From Alphaproteobacteria bacterium (GTDB lineage Bacteria; Pseudomonadota; Alphaproteobacteria; Rs-D84), in contig JAFTPS010000003.1 in assembly GCA_017463185.1 (NCBI GenBank), positions 27,113 to 91,112 on the forward strand: a stretch of 64,000 nucleotides of DNA, given 5' to 3'. Shown piece after piece: positions 38,743 to 56,177 of this stretch. Positions within the stretch are counted from its first letter, which is position 1. Each line of letters opens with the position of its first letter. The position numbers were made by a program, and so were the translations under genes. The notes beneath the pieces are model-generated. The model was given only the letters and a program-made list of their open reading frames with translations. It did not search any database and had not been told where the DNA came from.

Positions 38743-38816
38743 GCGGGCGTGGTATAATGGCAGAACGAAAGCTTCCCAAGCTTTAGACGAGGGTTCGATT
38801 CCCTTCGCCCGCACCA
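38743..38816 (+). tRNA. tRNA-Gly (anticodon CCC)
   Basis: GCGGGCG...CGCCCGC acceptor, anticodon stem AAAGC/GCTTT with loop TTCCCAA, T-loop GGTTCGATTCC, CCA encoded. Confidence 0.8.
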
Positions 38817-38835
38817 CACTTCGCGTCTGCGACGC
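38817..38835. repeat. palindromic direct repeat cacttcgcgtctgcgacgc (left flank of GIY-YIG gene)
   Basis: Repeated at 39168-39185 (cactcgcgtctgcgacgc); core gcgtc-tgc-gacgc is self-complementary. Confidence 0.55.
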
Positions 38836-38916
38836 TTCGTATGGCGCAGCCACAGGGAAAGCTGAGCAGAAACGAGAAGTAGTGCCCTGCGAAGCCTTTG
38901 GCGAAGGGGGGCATAA

Positions 38917-39165
38917 ATGTATTATGTATATTTGATTCAAAGTAAAAACTTTCCAAATCAACGTTATATAGGTTATACAGAAGATTTGAAACAACGACTA
39001 AAAGAACATAATGCAGGAATGTCAACACATACTAAAAAATATGCTCCATGGGACCTGATAACATATGTCGCTTTTTCAAACAAATATGCAGCATTAGATT
39101 TTGAAACTTATTTGAATAAAGGTTCAGGACACGCGTTTGCCAACAAACGTTTATGGACGAAATGA
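38917..39165 (+). CDS. GIY-YIG nuclease superfamily protein (YhbQ/UPF0213-like)
   Basis: MYYVYLIQSKNFPNQRYIGYTEDLKQRLKEHN = canonical GIY-YIG motif; 82 aa. Confidence 0.7.
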   Translation: MYYVYLIQSKNFPNQRYIGYTEDLKQRLKEHNAGMSTHTKKYAPWDLITYVAFSNKYAALDFETYLNKGSGHAFANKRLWTK

Positions 39166-39167
39166 TG

Positions 39168-39185
39168 CACTCGCGTCTGCGACGC
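39168..39185. repeat. second copy of palindromic direct repeat flanking GIY-YIG gene
   Basis: cactcgcgtctgcgacgc; followed by terminator aaacgcccaaacgggcgttttt. Confidence 0.55.
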
Positions 39186-39220
39186 AGCGCAAATACGAAA
39201 CGCCCAAACGGGCGTTTTTG

Positions 39221-39754
39221 TTATATTGTATGCTCGGATTTGGTCTTTGCCATTTGTACGGTTGGCGAAACATCCGATGGCGCGGCCATTTGTGCAACCT
39301 TAGACTGGGCCATTTCCCATTTGCGACGTGGCTCGCCAATAATTTTGTCATAAAATGCATCAACGATAAAATCAAATGCCGGGATGTCTGTTGGTAATTT
39401 TATCGGGGCGATATTGCGCGGGTCGCTGCCACGAATAGCTTTGTCAAACTGACCCTCGGTCAATTGCGCACCATATTCAAAAATCTCACATAATGGGCCG
39501 GCAACATCTGGTCCAACTTCCATACTTTCAAATCCCATTATATTATAGATACGGGCACCCGCCCCTTTTCCATTGTTATAGAAAACTATTTTAGATAATC
39601 CAGACTGTACACGGTAATATGCGCCCTCAGGTTCGTCTGCAACGCGCCGGTCATTTTTATCAATTCGCTCGCCAATTTTTACGATTGCGCGTTTTGATGT
39701 TTCCTGTTTGCGCAACAGCTTCTGTAATTCGTATATTTTATCTATATTTGCCAT
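39221..39754 (-). CDS. hypothetical protein
   Basis: 177-aa ORF with RBS aaagggaaa; no recognisable domain. Confidence 0.35.
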   Translation of the reverse strand: MANIDKIYELQKLLRKQETSKRAIVKIGERIDKNDRRVADEPEGAYYRVQSGLSKIVFYNNGKGAGARIYNIMGFESMEVGPDVAGPLCEIFEYGAQLTEGQFDKAIRGSDPRNIAPIKLPTDIPAFDFIVDAFYDKIIGEPRRKWEMAQSKVAQMAAPSDVSPTVQMAKTKSEHTI

Positions 39755-40069
39755 AGCATATTTCCCTTTTTATACATAATAAAACCGCCATACGGAATCT
39801 GGCGGTCGGGGAGTTGCTAAATCAGTGTATTAGTGATTCTGTCGCTTTCGGGTTGTCCCTGTTGTATAGCAAACAGCTCCCCGACTTATACAAGTCAGGG
39901 ATAAATCACGATACAAAACCATCGGAATGACATCAGATAACGATGCCATTAACAATTTTGCACCGAATACACTGGGCCTAGCACAGCCCCGAACCCATAT
40001 CCCTATGGATTCAATTCATAGTTTATCACTAAATTTCAGAAATGTAAATTGAATATATTGTTTGATGTT

Positions 40070-41155
40070 TTACTCAAACACGCTTTTGACATCTGTCATT
40101 ATATCACCGGCGCGTTTGTCGGATATGCCGACACGATGTGCGACCGCCAACATATCGGCACCTGTGATGTCTATGCCTTTGCCATTTACAGATGTTGTGT
40201 GTTCCCAAATTCCAGGTGTTCGGGTTAAGTCAAAGACAGGGGAAACATGCCAATCACCGTCATCATATAAAAATGCAAAATTTTTGGTGTGGTCATCGGT
40301 ATTGTTTATCCAAATGTTAAACACCATAAGGCGGAACATTTTTTCAACTTCAACCATATTACGGGTTAATTTCGCAGTCAAAGACAATAAATCAGAATAA
40401 TCAACCACAGGTTGTGTATGGTCTGCGTCCAACAGACCTGCTGCAGAAATCATAAAGACTTTATCGCCATTTGGTTTGCGGTCAAAACGCCGAACCCCAA
40501 AGTATTTTCCATTAAACAATCTATGTTCTGGTGTATCTAGGCCCGCTTTGATTGCAGATTCCATAATATTAAATTCTTGGGCACCAATATCTATTGGGTC
40601 TGTTCGGGCAGGAAATTTGATAATCCAATCCATACCATCAACTTTGCGGAATATTTTTGGACGTGTTCCACCGGACGAGCCACCAATACGAAACAATTCT
40701 TCGGTGATTTTATCTTCTGTGGTTATTGCATTGTCTTCAATGATTTTTCTGACCTGAATTGCAATGTCGTCCAGTTCGGAATCTTTGTATTCTGCAATCA
40801 TTTCAGCAGCAGGTTCAAATTCCAATGCCCCAGGCCCATTTTTACCAACGATTGCCAATCTGTCCAATACAGAAATGCTGTTCGGTGCAATTCCACGCCG
40901 CTGTAATTCACGATTTACCAATAATTGTCCCCAACTGTCTGGCAAAGAATCATTAAAAACACCAAACACACCGTCAAATGGATTGCGATTTGCAATAAAT
41001 ACGCGCTTTTCCAATGGTAATTTAAATGGTGATATACTAAAACCATTTTCCAGCCAACCTGCGTCATATTCAAATGCCATAAGGTTATCAGGGGTCAATG
41101 CCAAACGCCCAACCACCATGTCATGATATTTAACCGTCAGAATTTTATTTTGCAT
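40070..41155 (-). CDS. hipA: HipA-family serine/threonine kinase toxin
   Basis: HipA N-domain (..FDGVFGVFNDSLPDSWG..), catalytic NTDDHTKNFAF motif; start MQNKIL at 41155 overlaps hipB stop by 11 nt. Confidence 0.8.
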   Translation of the reverse strand: MQNKILTVKYHDMVVGRLALTPDNLMAFEYDAGWLENGFSISPFKLPLEKRVFIANRNPFDGVFGVFNDSLPDSWGQLLVNRELQRRGIAPNSISVLDRLAIVGKNGPGALEFEPAAEMIAEYKDSELDDIAIQVRKIIEDNAITTEDKITEELFRIGGSSGGTRPKIFRKVDGMDWIIKFPARTDPIDIGAQEFNIMESAIKAGLDTPEHRLFNGKYFGVRRFDRKPNGDKVFMISAAGLLDADHTQPVVDYSDLLSLTAKLTRNMVEVEKMFRLMVFNIWINNTDDHTKNFAFLYDDGDWHVSPVFDLTRTPGIWEHTTSVNGKGIDITGADMLAVAHRVGISDKRAGDIMTDVKSVFE

Positions 41156-41426
41156 GTTCGCCACCGTCCCGTACAACATCAAATATAGACTGATAATTTT
41201 TACGCACAAACAGGTTGTCAAAATCGCCTTCGTATCCCAGCGCCTGCGATAACTTAATCAGTGCAGTTAATGATATTTCCCCGGTTCGTTCAAATCGCTT
41301 GATTGAGCCCAAAGATACCCCAGAACGCTGGACCAATGTCATTTGCGACATCTTGGCGGTGCGTCGAACGGTACGGAACCTGTCTTTTATTCTGGTTTTG
41401 ATAGATAATATATTATCTATATTCAT
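41145..41426 (-). CDS. hipB: HTH XRE-family antitoxin HipB
   Basis: 93-aa Cro/C1-type HTH (..MSQMTLVQRSGVSLGSIKRFERTGE..) immediately upstream of and overlapping hipA. Confidence 0.65.
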   Translation of the reverse strand: MNIDNILSIKTRIKDRFRTVRRTAKMSQMTLVQRSGVSLGSIKRFERTGEISLTALIKLSQALGYEGDFDNLFVRKNYQSIFDVVRDGGEHAK

Positions 41427-41638
41427 TGTTTGTGCCTGTGTTTAGATATTATATTGTCTATAATTATAATGCAGCGTTGTAGATTTTGCAATAAAAAATC
41501 ATACAAAATCGTTTACAAACGACGGAAAACACGATAAATTATAAAAGCGCCAAGCAAAGTGTCAGGCAAACTGATAAAAACTGCTGAAAATCGGGTTGAA
41601 ATGGGCAGAAAAATGCCAAAAATGGCGTAAACACAGTC

Positions 41639-41654
41639 CCCTTCGCCCGCACCA
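41639..41654 (+). repeat. 16-nt duplicate of tRNA-Gly 3' end (cccttcgcccgcacca): candidate attR of tRNA-Gly islet
   Basis: Identical to 38801-38816; 2.8 kb downstream of the tRNA. Confidence 0.5.
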
Positions 41655-41751
41655 AAAATAGAGCCGACCATTGTGGTCGGATTTATTTTTGGGTTGCCTC
41701 AACAAAAATATCCCCGAACGAGTCGCGCCAGCAGCGGGACGGTTTGGATTT

Positions 41752-43092
41752 TTAAAACTTTTGACGCATAGTAAATTCTGCGCTGAATTTATCAAATTCA
41801 CGTTGCCAAATGTTTGAATCGCGATGCGTGTATCCCAATACTATCGTTGGAACAAATCCCCAAATATCAAATTTGTTATTAGACAAAGATACAGAATAGC
41901 GCTGGGTAAAATCGTGTTCTGTTATTTGTGAAAAACGACCATTATGCACAACCCATTTGTCGTCATCGTATGCTGTCCAATAAAAGTATGGTTCGGCATA
42001 TATGTGAAAACCAAAGGGTAATTCCACCCCCAGTCCAACACCAAATCCAGGTTGCCAATATGAATATTCGGGGGCATTTGCAGATTCGCGTAATACACCA
42101 ACGCGCGCCGCGGCATACAATCGCGCATTAAATGAATAAGAAAATCTCAATTGCGATGAATATGTATTACCAGTCAGGAAATCATCATATAAATCGTATG
42201 AATTATTCAAGTATTGCAAGTATAGACCACCAGATAATTTTCGGGTAAAGTCATAGTTCAAATCCAGTTTTGCACCGACCGACCAATTATATCGTTCCCA
42301 ACCATACCAACGACGATTCCAGACACCGGCCAACCAAATATCCCCACGTTTCCATATATATCGCGGGCCCGAACCAACCGACAGGTATAAATCGTCATAA
42401 TCAGAAATATCATAAATATTGCTGTATATAAACGCGTCTGATTTCCATCGCCAATGGTCGGACAGTTTGAATTCATAATTTCCACCCAATGAAAAATTAT
42501 AACCAATTGCAGATTCTGGGGCGCTTAAATCACGACACATTGGTCCAAACATTGTGTTTACACACTCGGTCCCACCAACCGCATTATTTATATTATTATC
42601 TGGTGCAGCACCAAAATTAAACCAAACATTCCAATTTTTATTTTGGCGCACAATCCACCGGTAATAGTTCATTACTTTACGCACATTATCCGGTAAATCC
42701 GCCCCCGCCATAGCCAGTCGCAAATGATAATCCGCCCGATACCATTGTTTTGTGTGCATATAACAAATTGCCAATTCAAAACGGATACGCGCCAAATCAG
42801 GCTGCTCGTCCAATATTTTATGAAATATTTTTATCGCGGTATTATAATCACCACGACGCGCCGCAATTTGCCCAAGTAAAAACCATCGTTCAATTTCCAA
42901 TGCAGGATTACCTGTTTGCGGAACGGTTATCAATATTTGTTCTGCTTTGTCGTAGTTACCAGCGTCTACAAAATTACCCGCCAACTGTATAACCTGAATT
43001 GTATCCAATTGTATGGTTTTTGTATTGTCCGTTTCTGCCCAGACAAAGCCAGGCAGAAACAACAGGCAAAGAATGATAGCCAGACGTTTCAT
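41752..43092 (-). CDS. surface lipoprotein assembly modulator (Slam, DUF560-like): signal peptide + TPR region + C-terminal beta-barrel
   Basis: Signal peptide MKRLAIILCLLFLPGFVWA, TPR-like ~150 aa, aromatic-rich alternating beta-strand region ending ..FTMRQKF (terminal Phe); 3 nt downstream of a GGSGGG-type lipoprotein gene, as in Neisseria SLP-Slam pairs. Confidence 0.6.
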   Translation of the reverse strand: MKRLAIILCLLFLPGFVWAETDNTKTIQLDTIQVIQLAGNFVDAGNYDKAEQILITVPQTGNPALEIERWFLLGQIAARRGDYNTAIKIFHKILDEQPDLARIRFELAICYMHTKQWYRADYHLRLAMAGADLPDNVRKVMNYYRWIVRQNKNWNVWFNFGAAPDNNINNAVGGTECVNTMFGPMCRDLSAPESAIGYNFSLGGNYEFKLSDHWRWKSDAFIYSNIYDISDYDDLYLSVGSGPRYIWKRGDIWLAGVWNRRWYGWERYNWSVGAKLDLNYDFTRKLSGGLYLQYLNNSYDLYDDFLTGNTYSSQLRFSYSFNARLYAAARVGVLRESANAPEYSYWQPGFGVGLGVELPFGFHIYAEPYFYWTAYDDDKWVVHNGRFSQITEHDFTQRYSVSLSNNKFDIWGFVPTIVLGYTHRDSNIWQREFDKFSAEFTMRQKF

Positions 43093-43095
43093 TGA

Positions 43096-44808
43096 TTATC
43101 TGGTTCCACCAAAGCCCAATTCAACATTTATATTACCGTCACCGCCATTGTCATTAGGACGCCAATTTCCATTATCGTTGACCCATTCCCAGTCAGAAGA
43201 ATTATCCAGGCTATAACGCATTGTTGCGGTGGCTTCAGTTGGGGTGTTATTATCCCCATAATATCCAGCAGTAAATGCCATAGTTTCAGAATCCTTGCTG
43301 ATTAGGTTGCCTTGGTTATCAAATTCAGGTACAACATTATTGTCGCTGGTCAACCCAGATGCTGATGTCACAAGTGTAAAATCATATGTTCGCAAGCTGC
43401 CATCGCCATCAACATCAAATGTTTTTGTTACACGGTCATTATCGTTTGTTTTACCATCACCATTTCTGTCACCAAAAACAACCAATTTATTTGTACCATC
43501 TGCGGATTGCACAGCTTGAATTTTATACCAATTGTCTGAAAAATCTGCGGTTAGTGTTTGGGTGCCTGTATTATCAAATACCAATGTAGCATTGGTATCG
43601 GTCATCATATCGTCTGTCAACGGCACATCAATACCATTTCCATTATATGCCAAACCATCGCGATATCTGACATCTGCAAATGCGGTTCCTGTAAATGTTA
43701 TACTGCCATCATTTGCCAATGTTTTCATATCTTCATTTGATATTTTCTTGGACGCATATCCACCAGCAAAAGGAGTAATCATAACACCCCAAGCATCCAA
43801 AAATTCTCGCACTTCCTGTTTACCTGCATCGTTCAATCCTGTTGTGGCAAACGTTGCGTTTTTAAAATCATTTTTCATGATACCAAAATCGGCATATTTC
43901 AGTCCCAGTTGTTTGCCATAACTGATATATTCGTCATACAATTCAAGATTGATGCTGCCACTAGCGTCGGTTATATTTTCTGTGGATACAATATTTGCAT
44001 CTGGATCTTCGTCGTTCATTTGACTCAAAGGAATCATACTTGCTTGGACAAAGATATTTGTATTATCCCGACGCACAATCACACCATCTGTATCATCATC
44101 AACTGGATATTCAGGCGAACCATCGTCATCATATCTCGTAAAACTGACAGAACCATCATCGTTATGAACCAGATAATCTGGATATTCATACGATACAATT
44201 TTACCATTTTTATCAACATTAAACTTGATTCTTTGCATTTGTGATGTGTATAAGTCCACACCATCCAATGTCATAATTTCTGTTCTTTGTTGCAGGTCTG
44301 CCAACGTTTTTTCAAAATTACTTTCCTTGATACGGCGTGCGGTCTCGGTTGCGTCACCACCGACAAAGCAATACATATCATCCATCAGCTTCAATGCAGA
44401 TTTAATTTTGTTTTTATCCAATTTTGATTTGTTGAACATTTCAACAATATCGCTTTCAGATGTTGTGTCTTCAACCAGCCAAGCCGCCAAATCAATCAAT
44501 TCACGCGCTGTGTCATATTCTGTATCCCCTGTTGGGGTTTTAGGCACAAACGCCCCGCGGGTTGTCGCAACACGTGATAAATTTACATCAGCCGCATAAT
44601 CACCCAATTTATGCGCAACATAACGTGCAACCTGATATTCACTGTTTGAAACCATACCTGTAATTTCTGAATTACTGGTCGCAACCGTATCAACAAATGA
44701 AGAGTTTGGAACAACTGGTTTTTCAAGCATCGCTGGGGCAGAACCACCACCTGAACCGCCACAAGCCGCCAATGCCAAAACAGAGGTTAAAAATGCAATT
44801 TTTTTCAT
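43096..44808 (-). CDS. surface lipoprotein (SLP-type; lipobox LAACGGSGGGS)
   Basis: MKKIAFLTSVLALAACGGSGGGSAP: lipobox followed by flexible Gly/Ser linker typical of Slam-dependent surface lipoproteins; 570 aa. Confidence 0.55.
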   Translation of the reverse strand: MKKIAFLTSVLALAACGGSGGGSAPAMLEKPVVPNSSFVDTVATSNSEITGMVSNSEYQVARYVAHKLGDYAADVNLSRVATTRGAFVPKTPTGDTEYDTARELIDLAAWLVEDTTSESDIVEMFNKSKLDKNKIKSALKLMDDMYCFVGGDATETARRIKESNFEKTLADLQQRTEIMTLDGVDLYTSQMQRIKFNVDKNGKIVSYEYPDYLVHNDDGSVSFTRYDDDGSPEYPVDDDTDGVIVRRDNTNIFVQASMIPLSQMNDEDPDANIVSTENITDASGSINLELYDEYISYGKQLGLKYADFGIMKNDFKNATFATTGLNDAGKQEVREFLDAWGVMITPFAGGYASKKISNEDMKTLANDGSITFTGTAFADVRYRDGLAYNGNGIDVPLTDDMMTDTNATLVFDNTGTQTLTADFSDNWYKIQAVQSADGTNKLVVFGDRNGDGKTNDNDRVTKTFDVDGDGSLRTYDFTLVTSASGLTSDNNVVPEFDNQGNLISKDSETMAFTAGYYGDNNTPTEATATMRYSLDNSSDWEWVNDNGNWRPNDNGGDGNINVELGFGGTR

Positions 44809-44940
44809 TTAATATCCTTTCTGGAATATGTTGTGAATGTTTTCACAAAGCAATAATTAAATCAACCGCTTTTGCGCATCTTACCAATGCACCAGGTCCA
44901 TAGAGAAAGAAAAAAACAAAAAACTTTACAAACAGGAAAT

Positions 44941-45003
44941 CCAAACTGCAACACCAACATAAAAATAAAACGCCCGCATGGGGCGTTTGATTTTTGTGGC
45001 GGA
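44941..45003. repeat. 63-nt direct repeat (copy A) = tRNA-Ser 3'-end (8 nt) + 3' flank incl. terminator hairpin; candidate attL
   Basis: caaactgcaacaccaacataaaaataaaacgcccgcatggggcgtttgatttttgtggcggag; 60/63 identical to 56115-56177 which ends inside tRNA-Ser. Confidence 0.6.
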
Positions 45004-45132
45004 GTATGATTTTATTACGAACCCTCGCATACAAATTCCAATTTTACAGGGAATTTACAGGGATTTGTCCACTATAAAACTCTTGTATTTTTCATATAAA
45101 ATCCTATATGCAATAATAAAGGATAAATAGAC

Positions 45133-45810
45133 ATGAATATTGATGACATTATAAACGCATTTTATAAACTGCATGATTATAAGGGAAAATTCAGATTTAA
45201 TACCCCAGAATATATCAGTTTCCATAGGAATCTCACGGATTTTATCTATGAAAACCACCTGGAAGATACTATGTATTGGAAGAAAATATCCGACAATTTA
45301 TTGTATACAGCAACGGAATATATGACACTGCGAGAAGCTGGCATTATATCAAAAAATCTAGAACTTTTACGACGCCATATTTTACAGACTCGAGACGAAC
45401 CTTTCTGGAAGTATATCCATCCTTTGTTATCGCCAATAACACAACCAAAATTCCAAGCACAACAATATGCCGATTGTGTAGAATCTGCATTCAAGGAAAT
45501 TAACTCTAGGTTAAAAGAGTTATATCTTAAATTGCGAAATACGGAACTAGACGGCAGCACCCTAATGAATCATGTATTTTCGCCTAATAACCCGGTGTTA
45601 ACTTTTGAGAACATAGAAACACAGACTGGCAAAGATGTCCAAATTGGATATATGAACATATTTGCTGGCGCAATGACAGGCATAAGAAACCCCAAGGCAC
45701 ACGGAAATCAGATTATATCGAAGGACATGGCTATAAAGCGATTGATTTTTGCTAGTTTATTAATGGACAAAATAGATGAAGCCATATCGTATTCCAACAT
45801 AGAAGAATGA
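45133..45810 (+). CDS. hypothetical protein, possibly TIGR02391/Hypoth_Ymh family (abortive-infection-like)
   Basis: C-terminal ..FAGAMTGIRNPKAHGNQ.. resembles conserved RNxxAHG block of Ymh family; assignment from memory, low certainty. Confidence 0.35.
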   Translation: MNIDDIINAFYKLHDYKGKFRFNTPEYISFHRNLTDFIYENHLEDTMYWKKISDNLLYTATEYMTLREAGIISKNLELLRRHILQTRDEPFWKYIHPLLSPITQPKFQAQQYADCVESAFKEINSRLKELYLKLRNTELDGSTLMNHVFSPNNPVLTFENIETQTGKDVQIGYMNIFAGAMTGIRNPKAHGNQIISKDMAIKRLIFASLLMDKIDEAISYSNIEE

Positions 45811-45908
45811 TTATATCGCAATAAAGCCGATGTGCTATCTGGGAAAAATATTGACTTTCTGGGAATTATCTGGTAACATCTGGGAAAAATTATAAAAAGA
45901 GTATAAAG

Positions 45909-46967
45909 ATGCCAAATAACCGCGATATTATGATTACACCAGAAATACTGAACGGTATTGCCGAGATTGATGCGTTTAATGGTGCGTGGACCGGTGGGGC
46001 GGTAAAACTGTCCGCGGATGAACTGCGTGTTATGCGCAGGGTCGCAACGATTGAATCTGTTGGCTCATCCAATCGCATAGAAGGCAACCGTATGACAGAT
46101 GCAGAGATTGAAGTGCTATTCGCTAATATCAATCGTCAGTCATTTGCCACACGTGATGAGCAGGAAGTTGCAGGCTATTCAGATGTAATCAATACCATAT
46201 TTGAAAACTATGCGTCTATACCGCTTAGCGAGAATTATATTAAGCAGTTGCATAAAATATTATTGAATTACTCTGACAAGGACACCCGCCATCGTGGGGA
46301 ATATAAAAAAGACAGTAATCGTGTTGCCGCTTTTGATGCAAACGGTAATGAAATCGGTTCTATATTCGAAACCGCTATACCATTTGATACTCCACGTCTG
46401 ATGAGCGAAACAGTAAAATGGGTCAATGACGCATTGGCAGACAAGTTCTTTCACCCTATTATTGCTATTGGGGTATTTGTGATACACTTTCTGTCCATCC
46501 ACCCATTTACCGATGGAAACGGGCGTCTGTCACGCGCATTGACTGTTATGCTGATGCTGAAAAGTGGATACACATATATGCCATATGCATCTATGGAATC
46601 TATTATAGAAGCAACCAAGGACGCATACTATCGTGCATTACGCGGCACACAAAAAAACATCTGGGGCGACAAAATCAATTATGAACCTTGGCTGACTTTC
46701 TTTGTTCGTGCCTTGGTTGCACAAAAGCGCCAATTGGAAGATAAAATTGCGAAGGCACGTGGCACAAGTGCCGCAAAATTATCATCTACTCAGAATGAGA
46801 TTCTGAAACTGTTTTATAAAGCACCAGAATTGACCATGTCACAGATTATATCTGCGATGGATAAAAATCCAGAAACCATTCGCAAGGCGGTACAGGCACT
46901 GGTAAAACGAGGACACATATCAAAGCAAGGCACGACCCGTGGCGTGTTTTACACTTTGCATAAATAA
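45909..46967 (+). CDS. fic: Fic/Doc family protein
   Basis: Canonical Fic motif HPFTDGNGRLSRAL; C-terminal winged-helix-like region. Confidence 0.8.
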   Translation: MPNNRDIMITPEILNGIAEIDAFNGAWTGGAVKLSADELRVMRRVATIESVGSSNRIEGNRMTDAEIEVLFANINRQSFATRDEQEVAGYSDVINTIFENYASIPLSENYIKQLHKILLNYSDKDTRHRGEYKKDSNRVAAFDANGNEIGSIFETAIPFDTPRLMSETVKWVNDALADKFFHPIIAIGVFVIHFLSIHPFTDGNGRLSRALTVMLMLKSGYTYMPYASMESIIEATKDAYYRALRGTQKNIWGDKINYEPWLTFFVRALVAQKRQLEDKIAKARGTSAAKLSSTQNEILKLFYKAPELTMSQIISAMDKNPETIRKAVQALVKRGHISKQGTTRGVFYTLHK

Positions 46968-47055
46968 CCCATAGCCCGCTGCAAAAACAGCGGGGATAAT
47001 TTCTATATTCTTTGCGGCCTACGCGGAATGGATTAATCATCTATGAAGAACGTAT

Positions 47056-47883
47056 ACCATAGCTCGCATTTCAAATCGTCTTTGATATAATTATGGCGTC
47101 AACGATTCGCCACAATCGCGCGTTATAGGTTGCTTCTCAAATCGTCTTTGATATAATTACAGTTGTTGAATATATGCCCGGCAAGACGTTATAGGTTGCT
47201 TCTCAAATCGTCTTTGATATAATACATGTGTTTATACATGGTTGCCTCTGCGCGTTATAGGTTGCTTCTCAAATCGTCTTTGATATAATGCAGATAATTA
47301 AAAATAGCAGTTGCAATCAGTTATAGGTTGCTTCTCAAATCGTCTTTGATATAATAAACGTTGACAATGATTTAGGAGTTGGTGCGTTATAGGTTGCTTC
47401 TCAAATCGTCTTTGATATAATTGTCTTGCGACCCAATGCATACGCACCAGCGTTATAGGTTGCTTCTCAAATCGTCTTTGATATAATACAACTTGAATTG
47501 CCGTTACACAGTACATAGTTATAGGTTGCTTCTCAAATCGTCTTTGATATAATAAACGTTGAAAATGATTTAGGAGTTGGGGCGTTATAGGTTGCTTCTC
47601 AAATCGTCTTTGATATAATGCCCGGTTCTTGTCAACCCTAACGCATTCGGTTATAGGTTGCTTCTCAAATCGTCTTTGATATAATGACCATATATCTTTG
47701 ATGCCGAATTGGAAAGTTATAGGTTGCTTCTCAAATCGTCTTTGATATAATAAGGGGCGTGAAGACTATGGAAGATTTGTTGTTATAGGTTGCTTCTCAA
47801 ATCGTCTTTGATATAATCGTGATGTATGTAAATCGCAACGCGGGTGCGTTATAGGTTGCTTCTCAAATCGTCTTTGATATAAT
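47056..47883 (+). CRISPR. CRISPR array, 13 repeats (first degenerate) of 36 nt GTTATAGGTTGCTTCTCAAATCGTCTTTGATATAAT, 30-nt spacers
   Basis: Perfect 66-nt periodicity from 47122; repeats at 47122, 47188, 47254, 47320, 47386, 47452, 47518, 47584, 47650, 47716, 47782, 47848; degenerate repeat 47056-47091 keeps 3' 21 nt; each repeat ends in extended -10 box TGATATAAT. Confidence 0.95.
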
Positions 47884-47987
47884 AGACACACAAAAAAACC
47901 GCTGATATTCTGCGGTTTTTTGTGTCTATACCGTCAAAAAAATACGTCTGTTTTTGATAAATTCTATTGATTCGTTTTATTTTTTTC

Positions 47988-48317
47988 TTAAAACATCAAC
48001 ATCTGTTGCGTGCCGATTTTTTCGGCAACTGGTGGTGAACCAACCAAGAAAAACATATCTGCAAATTGCTTTTCTGTGACAGTTAACACACGAACCGACC
48101 CTGATGGTGGTGCCAAGTGACGCAAACGCTGAACATGCTTGTCAACTGCAGCAGCCCCTTTGACCATGCGAGAATATATAGAGAACTGCATCATATAATA
48201 CCCGTCGTTTAACAAATCGTTTCTGAACCGTGTGGCTGCATGGCGTTCACGCCGTGTACCAACCGGCAAATCAAAAAATACTAGTATTCGCATAAACTTT
48301 TCCCCTGATTGATACAT
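47988..48317 (-). CDS. cas2: CRISPR-associated endoribonuclease Cas2
   Basis: ..MRILVFFDLPVGTRRERHAATRFRNDLLNDGYYMMQFSIYSR.. Cas2 fold; alternative start MRIL at 48293. Confidence 0.8.
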   Translation of the reverse strand: MYQSGEKFMRILVFFDLPVGTRRERHAATRFRNDLLNDGYYMMQFSIYSRMVKGAAAVDKHVQRLRHLAPPSGSVRVLTVTEKQFADMFFLVGSPPVAEKIGTQQMLMF

Positions 48318-48318
48318 A

Positions 48319-49233
48319 TTAGTTATCCGTATTTACAATTTTAGGCGCAGATGTAATACAAGGTAATTTTAAGGCTTGTAAATCCTTGGCCTTGAAAGAT
48401 GACGCAATTGATTCTGAATACAACGGTATCGCATTCATAATAGAATGCCGCATACCATTAAACGTGCAACTGTGCAACAAGACAGATACTAATTGTCGCT
48501 TGATATCCGGCGTCAATTTGTCTGCGTCGCCAAAATCCATATTAAACACAATATAATCCAGAAAAGGACGCCACGGTTCAATCAAATCATCAGCCAGACA
48601 AAAATTATCCAGCTTATTGCAATGATGTATACCATAAAACGGCAACATACCCGCGCCAACAATACTGCGCGCGACACATCCACGCAAAATCGCATAACCA
48701 TAATCCAGCGCATGATTGCGAATATCATTGTCATTACTGCGATTGAAATTTTCCCATAATGCCGACCAATAAATACGCGCAGCAACCCCTTCTAGGTTTT
48801 GAGCGTCGCCTGATTTAACATTATCTGCCAAAATATCTAGCTTTTTATACACAGCATTGTCGCACAGTCGTAATACCGCAGATTGATTGCGAATTTTTTG
48901 CACAACGATATTTTGCCACATACGTTTGCGCAGTGGCTGCGACGTTTCTATCTGAGCCCAGGCAGTTTCTGTGTAGCGTGAATTTTTATGAAACGGAAAG
49001 AACGCGCCATTCGGCATATGCGATGCATCACAGGAAAATACAACAGCGCCGTTTTCCGCCAACGACGACAATAATGTGGACGTTATCTGAATTTGCGGTG
49101 ACTCTAAAATGACGACAGAAATATCTTCTAGTGGGACGTTTTGTGTTTCACCACTGTCTGCCGTCCAGTTTAATTGTTTATTCCTGACACAAATCCGCGA
49201 CGGTTTGGACAGGGTAAGAATGCGCCAAGACAT
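48319..49233 (-). CDS. cas1: CRISPR-associated endonuclease Cas1 (type II)
   Basis: 304 aa, Cas1 conserved residues, between cas9 and cas2. Confidence 0.85.
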   Translation of the reverse strand: MSWRILTLSKPSRICVRNKQLNWTADSGETQNVPLEDISVVILESPQIQITSTLLSSLAENGAVVFSCDASHMPNGAFFPFHKNSRYTETAWAQIETSQPLRKRMWQNIVVQKIRNQSAVLRLCDNAVYKKLDILADNVKSGDAQNLEGVAARIYWSALWENFNRSNDNDIRNHALDYGYAILRGCVARSIVGAGMLPFYGIHHCNKLDNFCLADDLIEPWRPFLDYIVFNMDFGDADKLTPDIKRQLVSVLLHSCTFNGMRHSIMNAIPLYSESIASSFKAKDLQALKLPCITSAPKIVNTDN

Positions 49234-49286
49234 TTGAATGCCCCGTATTTGTATCCTTTCCCCCAGTCCAAATGTTATATAGTGCG

Positions 49287-52208
49287 TTATTTTTTATTTA
49301 CAACTGGCATACGCTTTTCCGGCAATTTTACATCGCGTATCGCCCCCAACACAGTGACAAAGCACTTTTTTATTTCGGTGCACATTCCGACTGATTTTTT
49401 AACAACTTGGATATTTTTATTATCTTGGCGATATAATATAAAATTTGTTCCATGGTCCATTTGGGTTATGTATCCTTCATACTCTTCGTCTGTACGGGTT
49501 TTGATTTTTATATAATCATCTTTGTGCAGGGTGCAGACGAATTCTGCATCGGGGACAATGAATTTTGTATCATCCCCAGACACAGTATCTGATACAAATA
49601 TCGGCACACAGGTGTATTTGCCTGTGTTCGTCCGCCAAATATCAAAACGAAACATATCGCCACGAACAGCGTTGCCAAAACGTATTTTTATACTGCCCTT
49701 GGCCCCCATTGTATTTTTCCCTTTCTTGGTGCGATACGATCTGGGATTTATATAAATCGTTTCGTTATGCGCAGATCCTGTGGCGTTGCAACGTGGTGGA
49801 CGCGAAACTGTAATCATATCCAACGCAGCCAGCACATCATTACGGAAAGTAGGCCATGGCGACTGTATGGCAGTTTTTAATTTTTTATACCATGCTTCGC
49901 CATTTTCGCCTATTAACCTGCCCTTGTTCTCAAACTTGCCAGACAAGGTTGACAGATAACGAACCATTTCTTGGGTAGCGCAAGCAATTACTATGGCATC
50001 TTGGGCATGATGTTTATCAGACTCTTCGCGGTTCTTGCTTAGCCCCCATTGATGACGAAGATAGTCCGTCAACGCCCCCGTACGAACCAGCACACGCATT
50101 TTGCCGTCATTTGTTGTTGACCATTTTATGCCTTGGGTCAAGTACTGGGCTGCAAAACGTGCAATCGTTGCATTGTCGTTCGCATTGCGGGCAATAAAGT
50201 CATTTTGTTCATCGCTGCTTTGTGGCAAATCTGTGTTTGTCAGTTTTCTGAACTTGGCCATATTATGATAACCGCGTGCACGCAGAGTCATTTCATAAAA
50301 CTGATTAGCATCCAAATATTCAGACGGGGTTTTGCTGCCTTTGGCCTGATTACAGGCGCGACAGACCAATACTTTGTTAGATTGCGAATTGTCCAATGAA
50401 CGTGAGTACGGCAAGATATGATCAATTTCATACGCATCCCAATTATTCGCATCAATAGATGCGCCACAATATGGACATTGACAATGCTGCTCCATATACA
50501 GTTTGTATTTTTTGGCATTTTTACCATGTTCTTGAAGCGCCGCTTCGTTCGCGGCACGATTTCGTTCATTTTCTTTTTGTAATAGTGCCAATTCTTTGGG
50601 GGACTTTTTTAATTCACGCCCTATCTCCAAATGAATTCTGTCAGGTGTGCCATAGCGATACACCATCGCATTATAAACACGACGTAATTGTGACAATGTA
50701 CGACGTGCCACAGGCGATGTTAAGCGTTTGCCCAGAACCGACCAATCTATCTGGCGCAACATGCCGTCTGCAACATCATCAGACATATCAATAAAACTAT
50801 CGCCTGTGCTGCGATGGTCCCAATCATTTATTTTGCACGCATCGGCATACGTTTTGCCCGCACGCATTTCTGGGATAAGTTTGTTTAATGCAGACAACGA
50901 TAAATTCAAAAATTCAGACGTACTTAGTTGTGAAATCGCATCTGCGTGTTCAGGCAAGAATTCAGACACTCCTTTTTTTATGCGTCCTGGCGTTTTCTCG
51001 GTCGCCAAAACTTCATATATTTTATCCATCAAAGCGATGTTATTGGTATACGGCAACAAGGTATGATAGCCACTAAACTTGCTAAACACGACTTTTTCAA
51101 CATCTGCAATTTTTGGTTCAACCCAAATTTTTTGTTCTTTGTCGTATTTACGTGAATAATTCAGTGCCTTGAACCGATACTCGTCATCAAATTGTAATAA
51201 TTTACGGACATCCGAATATTTTAAACCTGTTTTCTTTTTGTATAATTCTGCCAAAACTAATTCTATTTGGTCAGGCGTCAAACCGTTTTGATTGCACGTT
51301 GATAACGCCACAAACAACTGGGCAGATGGCGCCCCCTTGGGCGCAACAGGTTCACCGGTAAATTTGCACGCCCCACGCATAGATGCAACAGAACGATATA
51401 ATGGCGAATCTGATTCATTGAACTTGCGCTGACGCGAGGCAATCGGATACCACGCATCAAATACCGCAGTAAAATCATTGCCAAACGTTTTTTGTGCCGC
51501 CAATATCATTCGTGCTTCACGGAAAATTTCAGAACGAGGAATGGAATTTGTATAGGTGGATTCTTCACTTGTTTTTGCCTCGCCCTTTGCGCTGATTTTT
51601 GTGATGGTCTTTTTTTGGTTGCGCATTTGAGCCGGATTTTTTGCATACAAAACCTGACATAATGTTTTGTTGTCGCCCGATTGGCGCAACAAAGCCAGAT
51701 TATCCGCAATACAACCAATCGCCTTTAACTCTTCTTTGGCATCTGGGCTGTCTGTATCCGCTGTTTTAGCCACATCAACAGGATATGTAATATCGTCATA
51801 CCCACGATGCTTGGCCAAATGGTATAAAACACGACCTGTTTCACGTGGTGTTAATTTCCGCTGAAACGCATCAACCGCACGCAAACGCCAGATGTTTATA
51901 TCTGTGTCACGGTTTAGATAAAAATTATTGTGACCGTTTTTCTTGGGCTCTGGAATGTCTATTAAATTTGCAGATCGCAACAATGCACGAATTTGACGCA
52001 TACGCAACGCACGATGACGTAGGCGACGCCGCATACCACGGGCAACACGTCTGTCAGCGGCATTTGTCGCAGCAGTAAAGCAGCGTACGCCACACCCCAA
52101 GATTTTACTGCCCACAAAACCTTGATTTTCGTCTACTGTGTCTGACATTTCTATTGTAGCCCACCCAATACTGGCGACCCCTAAATCAAAACCGAATATT
52201 CTAGCCAT
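49287..52208 (-). CDS. cas9: Cas9, compact type II-C (973 aa)
   Basis: RuvC-I MARIFGFDLGVASIGWATIE; HNH ..YEIDHILPYSRSLDNSQSNKVLVCRACNQAKGS..; arginine-rich bridge helix after RuvC-I. Confidence 0.95.
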   Translation of the reverse strand: MARIFGFDLGVASIGWATIEMSDTVDENQGFVGSKILGCGVRCFTAATNAADRRVARGMRRRLRHRALRMRQIRALLRSANLIDIPEPKKNGHNNFYLNRDTDINIWRLRAVDAFQRKLTPRETGRVLYHLAKHRGYDDITYPVDVAKTADTDSPDAKEELKAIGCIADNLALLRQSGDNKTLCQVLYAKNPAQMRNQKKTITKISAKGEAKTSEESTYTNSIPRSEIFREARMILAAQKTFGNDFTAVFDAWYPIASRQRKFNESDSPLYRSVASMRGACKFTGEPVAPKGAPSAQLFVALSTCNQNGLTPDQIELVLAELYKKKTGLKYSDVRKLLQFDDEYRFKALNYSRKYDKEQKIWVEPKIADVEKVVFSKFSGYHTLLPYTNNIALMDKIYEVLATEKTPGRIKKGVSEFLPEHADAISQLSTSEFLNLSLSALNKLIPEMRAGKTYADACKINDWDHRSTGDSFIDMSDDVADGMLRQIDWSVLGKRLTSPVARRTLSQLRRVYNAMVYRYGTPDRIHLEIGRELKKSPKELALLQKENERNRAANEAALQEHGKNAKKYKLYMEQHCQCPYCGASIDANNWDAYEIDHILPYSRSLDNSQSNKVLVCRACNQAKGSKTPSEYLDANQFYEMTLRARGYHNMAKFRKLTNTDLPQSSDEQNDFIARNANDNATIARFAAQYLTQGIKWSTTNDGKMRVLVRTGALTDYLRHQWGLSKNREESDKHHAQDAIVIACATQEMVRYLSTLSGKFENKGRLIGENGEAWYKKLKTAIQSPWPTFRNDVLAALDMITVSRPPRCNATGSAHNETIYINPRSYRTKKGKNTMGAKGSIKIRFGNAVRGDMFRFDIWRTNTGKYTCVPIFVSDTVSGDDTKFIVPDAEFVCTLHKDDYIKIKTRTDEEYEGYITQMDHGTNFILYRQDNKNIQVVKKSVGMCTEIKKCFVTVLGAIRDVKLPEKRMPVVNKK

Positions 52209-52313
52209 TTATGCCCCCTTGGGTTATGTTATACATTATATAGTGCAAATGTGAATAAATGCAAATTTTATCCGAGACTTGATTTTTATGATTAGTTGGT
52301 TATAATACGGGTA

Positions 52314-52425
52314 TAGAAATCTTTATTCAACGGACGATTTGAGAAGCAACCGTTTATATAATAAAGAATATTTTCTGTGGAGTAACAATTTAAGTATCTC
52401 CGGGGGCTTCGGCCCCGTTTTTATT
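52314..52425 (+). ncRNA. tracrRNA (predicted)
   Basis: Anti-repeat GACGATTTGAGAAGCAACC (52333-52351) is exact reverse complement of repeat nt 7-25; sigma70-like promoter ttgatt-16-tataat at 52279-52306; ends in hairpin ccgggggcttcggccccg + ttttt; divergent from cas9. Confidence 0.6.
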
Positions 52426-52441
52426 AAAAAGGCATAAAAAT

Positions 52442-52906
52442 ATGGCGAAGCTATTTCTGATATGTGGATTTTTGGGTGCGGGCAAAACGACTGTTTCAAA
52501 ACAACTGGCGAAACAATATAACGCAGAATATATGAACGTTGATAGCCATGTGACGCAACTGTTTGCGCGGGACGAATATGAACACAATTGGGAAAAATGT
52601 TTTAGCATAGCAGAAGATGATTTGTGGCAAAAAATTAAACTGTGTGCCCAGTCAGACACTGATGTTGTTTTCGATGTCGGATTTTGGACACGTAAATCGC
52701 GCGACATGGCTAGCGCACGAGCCAGACAAATCGGGATGACGCCAATTGTATATTATGTTTATGCCCCAGACGAAATATTAAAGAAACGTATCGCGCAACG
52801 TTCTGGCCGAATTGCAGAAAATAACATCAAAAACTTTGACACAATCAAACAAATGTTTGAAAACCCCCAAGTAGATGAAGATTTTGTGCAAGTTGATAAT
52901 TTTTAA
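52442..52906 (+). CDS. P-loop kinase (AAA_33/zeta-toxin-like NTPase fold)
   Basis: Walker A LICGFLGAGKTTVSKQLA; 154 aa. Confidence 0.5.
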   Translation: MAKLFLICGFLGAGKTTVSKQLAKQYNAEYMNVDSHVTQLFARDEYEHNWEKCFSIAEDDLWQKIKLCAQSDTDVVFDVGFWTRKSRDMASARARQIGMTPIVYYVYAPDEILKKRIAQRSGRIAENNIKNFDTIKQMFENPQVDEDFVQVDNF

Positions 52907-53106
52907 TACCACACGACGCTTGACCGTTTTTTTGCGGAAATTATTGGCAAGAATCTCTGCGGGATAACTTATCTATTTCTTGAAACAAAACTTTTTGCGG
53001 GCTTACTGTCCATTGTTTTATCTAAGTCAAATTTTGACGGGTACAATGATATTTTATGATTGCATTTAGAAAATTCCATATCAGAATAATAAAAAAGGAC
53101 GAATTA

Positions 53107-53613
53107 TGAGAAAGACACCCCTGCTTGATGACATAACAAATGTTTATTTAGAAAAATTGAAAAAGCTTTATAATGCACCCCCGTTGCTTTTTATACGTTT
53201 ATTGAAACACTAATACAAAAACCACTTGTTGGGCTGACCTTTTCAAACAAGACATAATGTGTAAAATTACCAGAAAGAAAAAATATATCCCGCAATAATT
53301 TGGCATCCGTACTACGAGGTCTTTATCCTGAGCAATCAGGAAACATTGCTAAATCAAGAAACCTTAAAAAAATACATTGATTTAATTACAGATGAGGTCA
53401 TTTTCCACAAATCATCCTTGTTGCCGCAAACAAATATAATATGAAAACCATCTTATCCCAATTGACTGATATTTTGCCGGCAAAAACAGACAGCATGAAC
53501 TATAATCTATCTGTTATTACGGATGCGGAATTTAATCAAGCGTACGCCGCCGCAAAAGGCGCCGCCATTAAAGAGGCATTAACAAAAATCAGCCGTCTAA
53601 AAAAACAAGTTTA
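53107..53613 (+). pseudogene. decayed gene (multiple frameshifts/stops)
   Basis: Four short ORF fragments in different frames (MRKTPLLDDITNVYLEKLKKLYNAPPLL..., ...NNLASVLRGLYPEQ..., ...MKTILSQLTDILPAKTDSMNYNLSVITDAEF...) span a 700-bp stretch with no intact gene. Confidence 0.25.
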
Positions 53614-54303
53614 ATCTTTGTACTTGGGTGGGATTTCAAGATACAGACACTGAAATTTCTCACCAGACACATTAGAAACCATCAAAAAGTCTCGCCATTC
53701 AAAGTCATATGTGTTTTTGATATCTAAGTCAGGACGAGTTTTTTGTATTTCTGCAATTCTTTGTTCGGAGCAGCGATTTGTCGACTTCCATTTTTTCTCG
53801 CCTCGCTCATGCGTACCGCCCTCTATAGAAAAATTTGAGTAAATTGTGTTTTCATGTGCTTTCTTATAATTCGGTGCATTTGTTAAAAAAATACATACGC
53901 CCGCTTCGCACTCGTTCTTCTCTATCAAACATTCGGTTCTATTAATATCTGCCCAAAAGTCATACGCCCCAAAATCGTAAGCACTATGATCTTTTAATAG
54001 CGCACAAGCAAGCTTGCTATCATCATCAATACTTGGCGCATGTTTTATTGATTGCGTTTTGTATTTTAATTCAATTATATATTTTTTACCGTTATCTTTT
54101 ATTAAAATATCCGCATAAATATGATCACCTTTGGTCGTCTTAACTGTATCAGGTTTTTTGATCGGATATTCCAATCTAACATTACCAGGGAACTTTTCTT
54201 CCAGCACCATTGCAAATGAATGTTGAAAATCTGCCTCGGACACAAAAACACGTTTTTCTAAATCGTTAAATGCTTCTTTTATCTTTTTTAATACATCACT
54301 CAT
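53611..54303 (-). CDS. PD-(D/E)xK nuclease-like protein
   Basis: ..YADILIKDNGKKYIIELKYK.. fits D-x(n)-ExK catalytic core. Confidence 0.4.
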   Translation of the reverse strand: MSDVLKKIKEAFNDLEKRVFVSEADFQHSFAMVLEEKFPGNVRLEYPIKKPDTVKTTKGDHIYADILIKDNGKKYIIELKYKTQSIKHAPSIDDDSKLACALLKDHSAYDFGAYDFWADINRTECLIEKNECEAGVCIFLTNAPNYKKAHENTIYSNFSIEGGTHERGEKKWKSTNRCSEQRIAEIQKTRPDLDIKNTYDFEWRDFLMVSNVSGEKFQCLYLEIPPKYKD

Positions 54304-54312
54304 ACCACACCC

Positions 54313-54573
54313 TTATTTCAACAAATCAGCACATTCATGCAGTTTTATCGCATGCTTATAACTGATTTCAAACTTACGCTGAACATCTGTTATGTTTGGT
54401 TCTTTTTCAAGAATATAGCTTATTGCATTTTTTTGCAAGTCTATGTAATCGGCATACTTGGTTGCCAGTCCATCTACTAATTTGGTCACACCGTCTTCTG
54501 AAATATATGCTGGATGAATACGTTCTGGCTGTTGCGATCGTATACTATATACCGCATCACCGTACGACCACAA
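54313..54573 (-). CDS. small hypothetical protein (partner of nuclease-like gene)
   Basis: 86-aa ORF 9 nt upstream of nuclease-like gene. Confidence 0.3.
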   Translation of the reverse strand: MWSYGDAVYSIRSQQPERIHPAYISEDGVTKLVDGLATKYADYIDLQKNAISYILEKEPNITDVQRKFEISYKHAIKLHECADLLK

Positions 54574-55137
54574 AGTTAAAGCATTGGCATCCGCCCCAAG
54601 AATTTTTTTTCAACTCATTTTTTGGCATATCAAATACAAATCGTGTATCAAAGCATGATGCGTGCAGACGGTTTTCGTGAGATGTCCTGGTATCTGTTCC
54701 AGTGGACCGGCAAAATACGCCCAATTGCACCGAAGGAATTGGTCAGTACCTATAACAGCATTTTGAAAGACATCATCCTGAACAGCCAGTCTGGCAAGTA
54801 AGTCATTTTTGGTCTGGGTCGATTTTTCTAATTTAATTTTGCTGAAATACCTGTTAAAGTTGCTTTGTAAGCAAAGCCCCCAATTCAGAACGAGAAAAGG
54901 GAGGTCTGTTTTCGTAGCACCTAGGGTTGAGTAAAACTCCCTTTTGCATCTTTGCTTGCGTTCCTGCGAGAGGGCGAATTCTAATAATACCAGTCATCGC
55001 AGACGGTCACCAAATCTGCTGTCACGAAAGTTATATAACGACAAAGGCATACGTTTTGTTAACCAACACGCATGCTCCAAAGATAAGGTCGGCCCATATT
55101 ACTATGCGACACGGGGGGCTATCTGCCAGCTGCACAG

Positions 55138-55359
55138 GTGGACGAAATAACCATGTCTATTGTAGCCGAATTTCTGGGCAGCGATATGAGCGCCCTGCGC
55201 CATATTTATAAACACCTGTCGCTGGCATATCTGAACCCAGAAGTCGTAAATCATATATTGAGTAATCAATGTCATATATCTGTTCGCGATATGTTGGACA
55301 AGGCATCACGCAGCAATGACTTTGCTGAACGGAAAAGGTTATTTACCGCCTATTTATAA
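55138..55359 (+). pseudogene. possible tyrosine-recombinase C-terminal remnant
   Basis: ..ALRHIYKHLSLAYLNPEVVNHILSNQCHISV.. loosely resembles integrase box II (LRH..A..L...G......LGH) but lacks catalytic Tyr; preceded by ~550 bp without ORFs. Confidence 0.2.
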
Positions 55360-55407
55360 TTGCATTTTATTACCTCGCTTTTTATAATCATATAAAGTGA
55401 GGTTGAT

Positions 55408-55824
55408 ATGAAAATAGCATTTTTGATTTTTCCTTTATTTCTTGTTGCCTGTGCGGAACAATCTTTTATACAGAAGATAAGTGCACCATCAGAAACAATC
55501 CACAATGAAAAGTGTGCAGAGATTCAAAAATATAGAATTTTTCAAGTTATTGATAATGGTTCATTGGCCATGGCTTGCGAAAACACATATGGCATTGAAT
55601 CGTGTATGGGCTTAACTGTGTTTATTCCAAAAGAAAAAGGTAAAATATATTATGACGACATGATTGTCGGACCATCAACTGATAAGTGCATAACCTATGC
55701 TGATGTTTATCGCTATACAACAAATCGTGGTGATACTAAAACAGTTCCAAAAATCAAATTTGAAAACAAAGACATTCCAAACCCCGCTTTTGTAGAATGG
55801 GAAAAAACACAATCTAATCAATAA
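55408..55824 (+). CDS. lipoprotein (lipobox LVAC)
   Basis: MKIAFLIFPLFLVACAEQ signal/lipobox; RBS gaggt. Confidence 0.5.
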   Translation: MKIAFLIFPLFLVACAEQSFIQKISAPSETIHNEKCAEIQKYRIFQVIDNGSLAMACENTYGIESCMGLTVFIPKEKGKIYYDDMIVGPSTDKCITYADVYRYTTNRGDTKTVPKIKFENKDIPNPAFVEWEKTQSNQ

Positions 55825-55982
55825 AATTGCCACGGTGGTTTTGGCCATTGTATGTAAGTGGTGGGGATATTCGGTTATTTGATAACTTCGTTGTACATAC
55901 TGGTAACCTTGCGGGGGAAAAGTGGCGGAAGTGTGGCTAAAAACAAAGCCCCGACAGATATTGTCGGGTTTTTGATTATTTC

Positions 55983-55996
55983 TGGCGGAGACGAAG
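55983..55996. repeat. 14-nt partial copy of tRNA-Ser 3' end (tggcggagacgaag)
   Basis: Identical to 56170-56183; third occurrence of tggcggag with 45001 and the tRNA itself. Confidence 0.4.
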
Positions 55997-56114
55997 TATT
56001 CCCTCGCCCCGCGGATGGCGGGGCTGCGGGGCATTCCTGACGGTTTGACGATGTTTCACTTGTCAAACCTACTCATTGTCGAACCCGGCAATCATAGATT
56101 GCGAACGTTTCGTC

Positions 56115-56177
56115 CACACTGCAACATCAACACAAAAATAAAACGCCCGCATGGGGCGTTTGATTTTTGTGGCGGAG
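56115..56177. repeat. 63-nt direct repeat (copy B) overlapping tRNA-Ser 3' end; candidate attR
   Basis: cacactgcaacatcaacacaaaaataaaacgcccgcatggggcgtttgatttttgtggcggag. Confidence 0.6.

Follow-up and report, generated by a model that had tools for sequence, protein, structure and literature searches.

The best-known surface lipoproteins that depend on Slam come from Neisseria, Moraxella, Haemophilus and Pasteurella, where they are virulence factors and vaccine antigens. Slam (surface lipoprotein assembly modifier) proteins, the outer-membrane proteins of the type 11 secretion system (T11SS), are defined by an N-terminal domain of tetratricopeptide repeats (TPR) and a DUF560 domain, both present in every Slam, and they have been reported from all classes of Proteobacteria (Hooda 2017, PMC5449769). 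The sequence similarity network of the T11SS contains the clusters 1A, 1B and 1C (Grossman 2021, PMC8406197). Predicted T11SS cargoes with alpha-helical N-terminal effectors have been catalogued (Grossman et al. 2025, PMC12282271), the criterion being BLASTp similarity to a known cargo at E<0.05. The present study concerns a stretch of 64,000 nucleotides from an uncultured alphaproteobacterium (positions 27,113 to 91,112 of contig JAFTPS010000003.1, assembly GCA_017463185.1; hereafter the window), in which the gene of a 570-aa lipoprotein stands directly upstream of the gene of a 446-aa Slam. Since Slams are known across all Proteobacteria classes (PMC5449769), an alphaproteobacterial Slam is not new in itself, and the Slam-cargo system is not new in kind. 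The novelty is the cargo family, which is large, without a Pfam model and tied to known cargo by fold alone. Slam biology has not previously been discussed in the host lineage.

The gene pair and the Slam protein

Both genes are on the minus strand. The lipoprotein open reading frame (ORF) at 43096-44808 (570 aa) is the upstream member of the pair and the ORF at 41752-43092 (446 aa) the downstream member. An earlier note on this DNA, made from the letters alone, had named no strand and had placed the second gene 3 nt behind the first; the spacing was confirmed at the junction, which reads 'aga taa tca atg' from stop to start. Both ORFs were taken as real genes and not chance, because homologues were found for each (74 for the lipoprotein, 583 for the Slam). 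An antisense ORF inside the lipoprotein gene (43532-43921, plus strand), conserved in the neighbour clustering, was not accepted as a gene and was put down to the conservation of the coding sequence on the opposite strand.

From its sequence, the 446-aa protein is clearly a Slam, or type 11 secretion outer-membrane protein, by its Pfam match and the names of its homologues. PF04575 (SlipAM, formerly DUF560) was matched with 98.8 bits against a cutoff of 22, over residues 154-435 and model positions 1-277 of 288. The beta-barrel domain was assigned to residues 154-446 (41755..42633) and ends in a C-terminal Phe. No BamA- or LptD-type family was matched in Pfam, and the profile check proposed in the earlier note was thereby passed. 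The signal peptide and the outer-membrane-type C-terminus were judged by inspection. A Sec-type signal peptide covers residues 1-19 (43036-43092), reading MKRLAIILCLLFLPGFVWA and then ETD, and the C-terminus reads ...FTMRQKF, with a Q[KR]F ending kept in 12 loci. The periplasmic N-terminal region, at about residues 20-145 (42658..43035), was recognised by Pfam TPR models, with matches at residues 68-120 to TPR_19 (42.6, cutoff 25), TPR_2 (29.4, cutoff 27) and TPR_14 (27.6, cutoff 23.5). Sequence matches in the PDB were to consensus TPR proteins only, at residues 67-120. The signal peptide, the TPR part and the terminal Phe claimed for the second protein were thus all recovered.

A database search returned 583 homologues of the Slam at E<=1e-5. 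Among the 120 of these that were listed, identity ranged from 59 to 88% and nearly all carried PF04575 and PF24575; those named by NCBI were called 'surface lipoprotein assembly modifier [Alphaproteobacteria bacterium]'. The Slam gene here would be annotated automatically. Like the Slams of Neisseria, Moraxella and Pasteurella (Slam1/Slam2, PmSlam), the protein has a signal peptide, periplasmic TPRs, a near-complete DUF560 barrel and a C-terminal Phe, and its gene lies directly beside that of a lipoprotein with a TbpB-like barrel. It differs from the known Slams in its host, an uncultured gut alphaproteobacterium with a reduced genome, and in its score with the TPR_Slam model, which at 32.7 was slightly below the cutoff of 35.2. 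TPR_Slam was recorded as a match in the homologue at locus L005, which is 87% identical to the Slam of the window.

Architecture and predicted structure of the lipoprotein

The lipoprotein, the predicted Slam cargo, begins with a signal peptide and lipobox (residues 1-16, MKKIAFLTSVLALAAC; 44761..44808), with L-A-A-C at residues 13-16 and Cys16 as the predicted lipidation site. The mature N-terminus CGGSGGGSAP, with Gly at +2, was found as described in the earlier note, and C16 was invariant across 67 family members. The following Gly/Ser/Pro-rich flexible tether (residues 17-39; 44692..44760) was the most gap-rich and variable N-terminal block, and residues 1-29 had a predicted local distance difference test score (pLDDT) below 50. 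An AlphaFold2 model built from the 67-sequence alignment A1 was confident (mean pLDDT 84.3, predicted template modelling score 0.83). In this model the disordered tether (1-39) is followed by a helical part (about 40-180), a beta-rich part (181-284) and long beta hairpins (285-570). The conserved alpha-helical N-domain was accordingly delimited as residues 40-180 (44269..44691), and the beta module as residues 181-570 (43099..44268), consisting of a TbpB-like handle and a C-terminal barrel with indel-rich variable loops. The beta module ends in a conserved terminal strand, ...ELGFGGTR, with the conserved pattern GFGG[TK][RK]. Mean identity across A1 was 59% in the helical domain and 28% and 35% in the beta regions, and indel hot spots were located at residues 221-240, 261-280, 321-340 and 461-480.

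The top structural matches of the lipoprotein model were TbpB, HphA, HpuA, LbpB and hemophilin. According to the model, the fold of the lipoprotein is that of the Neisseria-type surface lipoproteins, known Slam cargo. The N-terminal half is helical and there is a single handle-barrel module, with no second lobe of the TbpB type. A structural relative of the helical N-domain was sought and none was found. The structure check proposed in the earlier note thus also came out in favour of a TbpB-like surface lipoprotein. The relationship is one of structure only, since the sequence searches brought up no signature of TbpB_B_D or fHbp.

Attempts to assign the lipoprotein by sequence gave nothing at E<=1 in Pfam and NCBIfam, and nothing at E<=10 among PDB sequences (phmmer). 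When A1 was searched as a profile against the PDB, the matches all lay at E>0.04 and were mere noise, the PilP signal peptide and PD-1 among them. In a Pfam scan of the query and 66 relatives no cargo domain (TbpB_B_D PF01298, fHbp/GNA1870 lipoprotein C) was matched at E<=1, and 40 sampled members of the wider family had no Pfam domain. Alignment of A1 and of alignment A4 by hhalign with an approximate fHbp sequence gave a probability below 1%. Several motifs, TFTGTAFA, ATLVFD...TLTADF, YYGD..PTEA and GFGG, resemble barrel motifs of fHbp and TbpB; a claim of homology from them was dropped, the hhalign probability being below 1%.

Compared with the TbpB C-lobe and the TbpB_B_D handle-barrel (PDB 5kkx, 3v8u), the cargo showed an identity of only 12-14% and no PF01298 match. 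It differs from TbpB and LbpB in having one handle-barrel module and not two lobes, in its helical N-terminal part, and in that no TbpA-like TonB-dependent partner was found. No sequence similarity was seen to fHbp, NHBA or PmSLP-1/fIbp, and the cargo is much larger than these, with an extra conserved helical domain of 140 residues. Hemophilin and HphA are hemophores, soluble secreted proteins (signal peptidase I type signal) with a haem-binding N-terminal clamp, and the cargo was not of that kind. The cargo has the overall plan of the three-part cargoes in the T11SS catalogue (PMC12282271), in which an effector at the N-terminus is followed by a beta 'pedestal' or handle and then by the C-terminal barrel, 8-stranded in the catalogue. 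Unlike those cargoes, the present one has no such BLASTp-level similarity to known cargo, and its helical part is compact and globular, unlike the repeat helix of Pls-like proteins. In the catalogue text that was searched, Enterousia did not appear as an entry, and a catalogue built on a BLAST similarity criterion would also miss this cargo family.

Conservation of the lipoprotein-Slam pair

When one genome of each GTDB species was scanned with the 16-sequence alignment A2, 20 loci came up. Every one belonged to an uncultured alphaproteobacterium, and several of these organisms bore the name Candidatus Enterousia. Hidden Markov models for both proteins placed a Slam directly downstream of the family member in 9 of the 19 assessable loci, and 5.5 kb away in one more. 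The metagenome loci L005-L009 likewise have the two genes side by side. On metagenome contigs with flanks unlike those of the window, relatives sharing 83% and 67% identity with the query stood directly upstream of a Slam, and one metagenome pair adjoins resolvase and integrase genes. A family member immediately upstream of a Slam was recorded in the window and in L005, L008, L010, L012, L014, L016, L020, L024, L026 and L027. Spacing in these adjacent pairs was 0-12 nt in 10 of 11, the remaining one being L027 with about 120 nt. In all, the pairing was retained in 11 loci besides the window, with differing flanks, and at cargo identities down to 25-30% (L026, L027), with Slam identities of 59-87%.

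Neighbour clustering of 12 loci with differing flanks left just two common gene families, the lipoprotein and the Slam. A third conserved gene, such as a TonB-dependent receptor, TonB or a regulator, was sought near the pair in these 12 loci and none was found. Nor was a TonB-dependent receptor or TonB gene present among the scanned ORFs of the 64-kb window. These results bear on the idea that the lipoprotein acts as accessory subunit in a bipartite nutrient receptor of the TbpB/HpuA type, or as a lipidated hemophore. It would then capture iron, haem or some other nutrient and pass it on to a TonB-dependent transporter whose gene lies elsewhere. Such a role would fit the best structural matches, which are to TbpB, HphA, HpuA, LbpB and hemophilin, and a reduced host genome without standard transporters must scavenge (PMC12306168). 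It is nevertheless improbable, given that no receptor was conserved beside the pair in the 12 loci or seen among the scanned ORFs of the window, that the N-terminal half is modelled as helical with no second handle-barrel lobe, and that fHbp, NHBA and PmSLP have the same fold without being nutrient receptors.

The lipoprotein is very probably the cognate cargo of the adjacent Slam. Some observations weigh against that assignment. No Slam was detected within 10 kb in 9 of the 19 assessable GTDB loci, showing that adjacency is frequent and not obligatory. The searches described above found no sequence-level tie between the lipoprotein family and any known cargo domain. In addition, conservation in this family is highest in the helical N-domain, whereas known cargoes are conserved in their C-terminal barrel. 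An ordinary outer-membrane lipoprotein that faces the periplasm, beside a Slam that exports some other cargo, would make the adjacency meaningless; it would agree with the roughly half of family members in GTDB loci that stand without an adjacent Slam, and with the lack of sequence similarity to known cargo domains. This alternative is very hard to maintain, because the close pairing is kept over many genomic contexts at cargo identities down to 25%, the modelled fold matches known cargo, and no alternative candidate cargo was conserved near the Slam in the neighbour clustering.

For the cognate-cargo assignment, the locus L027 gave an indication of which part of the lipoprotein is involved. 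The BLASTP alignment of the L027 protein to the query was confined to the beta module (residues 296-569), and with the Slam gene about 120 nt downstream this suggests the beta module as the Slam-linked part. The metagenome-assembled genome (MAG) CAMOGA01 carries one lipoprotein-Slam pair (L011) and an orphan paralogue (L021), an arrangement compatible with a single Slam that handles several cargoes in the manner of Neisseria Slam1. The pair offers a concrete, clonable test case for whether Slams recognise their cargo by fold or by sequence.

Proposed surface translocation and function

What we infer beyond the gene structure, the Slam family membership, the cargo fold and the gene linkage is translocation, surface exposure and a binding role, along a pathway modelled on the Neisseria and Moraxella Slam systems (Hooda 2017, PMC5449769; Huynh 2022, PMC9090332). 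The lipoprotein would be exported by Sec, lipidated at Cys16 and delivered to the outer membrane by the Lol pathway and a chaperone, delivery by Lol being expected because there is a Gly at +2 and no inner-membrane retention signal. The adjacent Slam would then recognise the C-terminal TbpB-like barrel module, with its conserved last strand ...GFGG[TK][RK], or a specificity motif. Passage through the Slam barrel would follow, with the lipid anchor flipped to the outer leaflet, and the Gly/Ser/Pro tether would keep both domains, helical and beta, at a distance from the surface. The effector could be the conserved helical domain, with the beta module serving both for targeting and as variable surface.

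The stand-alone surface lipoproteins fHbp, NHBA, PmSLP and NilC bind host factors or glycans. The cargo could well be a stand-alone binder in the same style, acting in adhesion or binding some factor of the host or of a partner, since no TonB-dependent receptor accompanies the pair at any locus; this reading is credible and falls a little short of probable. The cargo is in any case a candidate surface protein for host or partner interactions of uncultured bacteria with reduced genomes.

Diversity of the cargo family

At E<=1e-3, 74 relatives of the lipoprotein were found in a set of 5.8 billion proteins; every relative was metagenomic and none had a Pfam domain. One was 100% identical and came from an NCBI MAG labelled 'Alphaproteobacteria bacterium'. 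An exhaustive profile search at the same threshold extended the family to 669 clusters at 50% identity, and many of these were about 340 aa in length, matching the beta module alone.

The two modules were found to have diverged unevenly. Compared with the query, P0035, P0037 and P0040 were 84-86% identical in the helical domain and 14-29% in the remainder. The reverse pattern was seen in P0012, P0018 and P0020, with 55-65% in the helical domain and 60-73% in the beta part. These mosaic identities point to recombination between helical and beta modules. Two or three tandem paralogues were present at L001 (3715-7833), L004 (3665-7542), L005 (4605-7722) and L014 (4394-7029), having in common a signal peptide, a CGGG tether and a GFG-type C-terminus. 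At L001 and L004 no Slam was found inside the 6-kb flanks examined. Slam machinery has been retained in a gut alphaproteobacterium with a genome below 1 Mb, and the cargo paralogues have multiplied and diversified in its lineage. Cargo catalogues based on sequence similarity would overlook these paralogues.

An explanation for this diversity could be that the family is mainly a variable surface coat or decoy, undergoing antigenic or phage-receptor variation by recombination between paralogues, and not a binder of a specific ligand. The mosaic identities, the tandem paralogues, the indel-rich loops and the 669 clusters at 50% identity would all be accounted for. On the other hand, the strong conservation of the helical domain argues for a specific, constrained function, and neither repeats nor switching machinery were noticed next to the gene. 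A coat function of this kind is rather unlikely as the main role; it is compatible with, and not exclusive of, the reading of the lipoprotein as cargo of the Slam. A broader proposal, which is possible and still doubtful, takes the cargo as the founding example of a very large family that is confined, as seen here, to genome-reduced gut Alphaproteobacteria (Rs-D84 / Ca. Enterousia). Its helical domain would attach to a host cell or a partner microbe, and exchange of the beta module among paralogues would vary the surface. If this were true, an obligately dependent gut symbiont would have the Slam system as its main interface, in contrast to the iron-piracy device of a pathogen.

Operon layout and transcription signals

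Hairpin-plus-T-run terminators on both sides of the pair give it the appearance of a self-contained two-gene operon. The terminator-like hairpin at the downstream end (41664..41680, minus strand) has the form CCGACC-ACAAT-GGTCGG and is followed by a T-run. The hairpin and T-run upstream of the operon (44988-44968, minus strand) fall in a 65-nt repeat, and this upstream 'terminator' is the distal copy of the repeat that brackets an 11.2-kb segment. The 5' intergenic region (44809..44967, minus strand) contains a putative promoter and an AAGGA ribosome-binding site (44819-44815) ahead of the lipoprotein gene. The putative promoter element is a TTGATT hexamer resembling a -35 box (44865-44860), which is also present upstream of the L010 orthologue, and GGTTGATTT was conserved in an alignment of the upstream regions of the window and L010. 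A promoter scan of the region gave sites no more frequent than in shuffled sequence, and the promoter is therefore proposed solely from its conservation in L010. An Rfam search of 41300-45300 for a riboswitch, leader RNA or other structured RNA gave nothing at E<=0.1.

Host and genomic surroundings

The host is alphaproteobacterial and close to Ca. Enterousia (order Rs-D84). Its placement in the Alphaproteobacteria was based on a permuted transfer-messenger RNA (tmRNA), the labels of MAGs and a taxonomy lookup. The tmRNA gene, of the permuted two-piece type, was located at 8706-9059 (minus strand) with the tag peptide AANDNVRLAMAA, which fits an alphaproteobacterial origin. The proteobacterial host expected in the earlier note was correct, and it is an alphaproteobacterium and not a Neisseria-like organism. 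Ca. Enterousia-like bacteria live in animal guts and have genomes mostly below 1 Mb, without the tricarboxylic acid cycle, respiration and standard transporters (PMC12306168). The present host is likewise genome-reduced and probably partner-dependent.

The operon is located between two apparent insertions. On the upstream side, a 65-nt direct repeat (95% identical; 44940-45004 and 56113-56177) flanks the 11.2-kb segment 45005-56112, and its second copy (56113-56177) overlaps tRNA-Ser(gga) at the 3' end, along with the terminator of that gene. Encoded in the segment are a Ymh-family protein (45133-45810), a Fic protein (45909-46967) and a type II CRISPR-Cas system, with an array at about 47055-47883 (66-nt period), cas2, cas1 and a compact cas9 of 973 aa (49287-52208). 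No integrase was identified in 45005-56112, which looks like a tRNA-associated island carrying a type II CRISPR-Cas system. On the other side, the 3' end of tRNA-Gly(ccc) recurs as an exact repeat of 16 nt (38801-38816 and 41639-41654), the second copy just downstream of the Slam terminator. The 2.8-kb islet bounded by these repeats (38817-41654) contains a GIY-YIG nuclease gene (38917-39165), an unannotated ORF of 177 aa and a toxin-antitoxin pair of a HipA kinase and a HipB-like helix-turn-helix protein (40070-41426, minus strand).

A gene for a lysozyme-like protein of the glycoside hydrolase family 108 (GH108) type with a signal peptide was seen near family members at L001 (7880-8869) and L004 (7589-8566). 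The window also has a GH108-type gene (60129-61238, minus strand), about 15 kb from the operon, which adjoins the gene of a secreted 562-aa protein without a Pfam match (61207-62895). A giant putative surface protein of 3099 aa is encoded at 17027-26326 (plus strand); it has a signal peptide, and PF09479 matched its Listeria-Bacteroides repeat domains with 164.9 bits. The ORF amounts to about 1% of a genome of about 1 Mb, and its local guanine-plus-cytosine content is raised to about 0.47-0.51. Finally, a glycosyltransferase family 6 gene (2042-2917, plus strand; PF03414, the ABO blood-group transferase family) was found among other glycosyltransferase, RgpF and TupA-like genes, and may reflect host-glycan mimicry in a gut symbiont.

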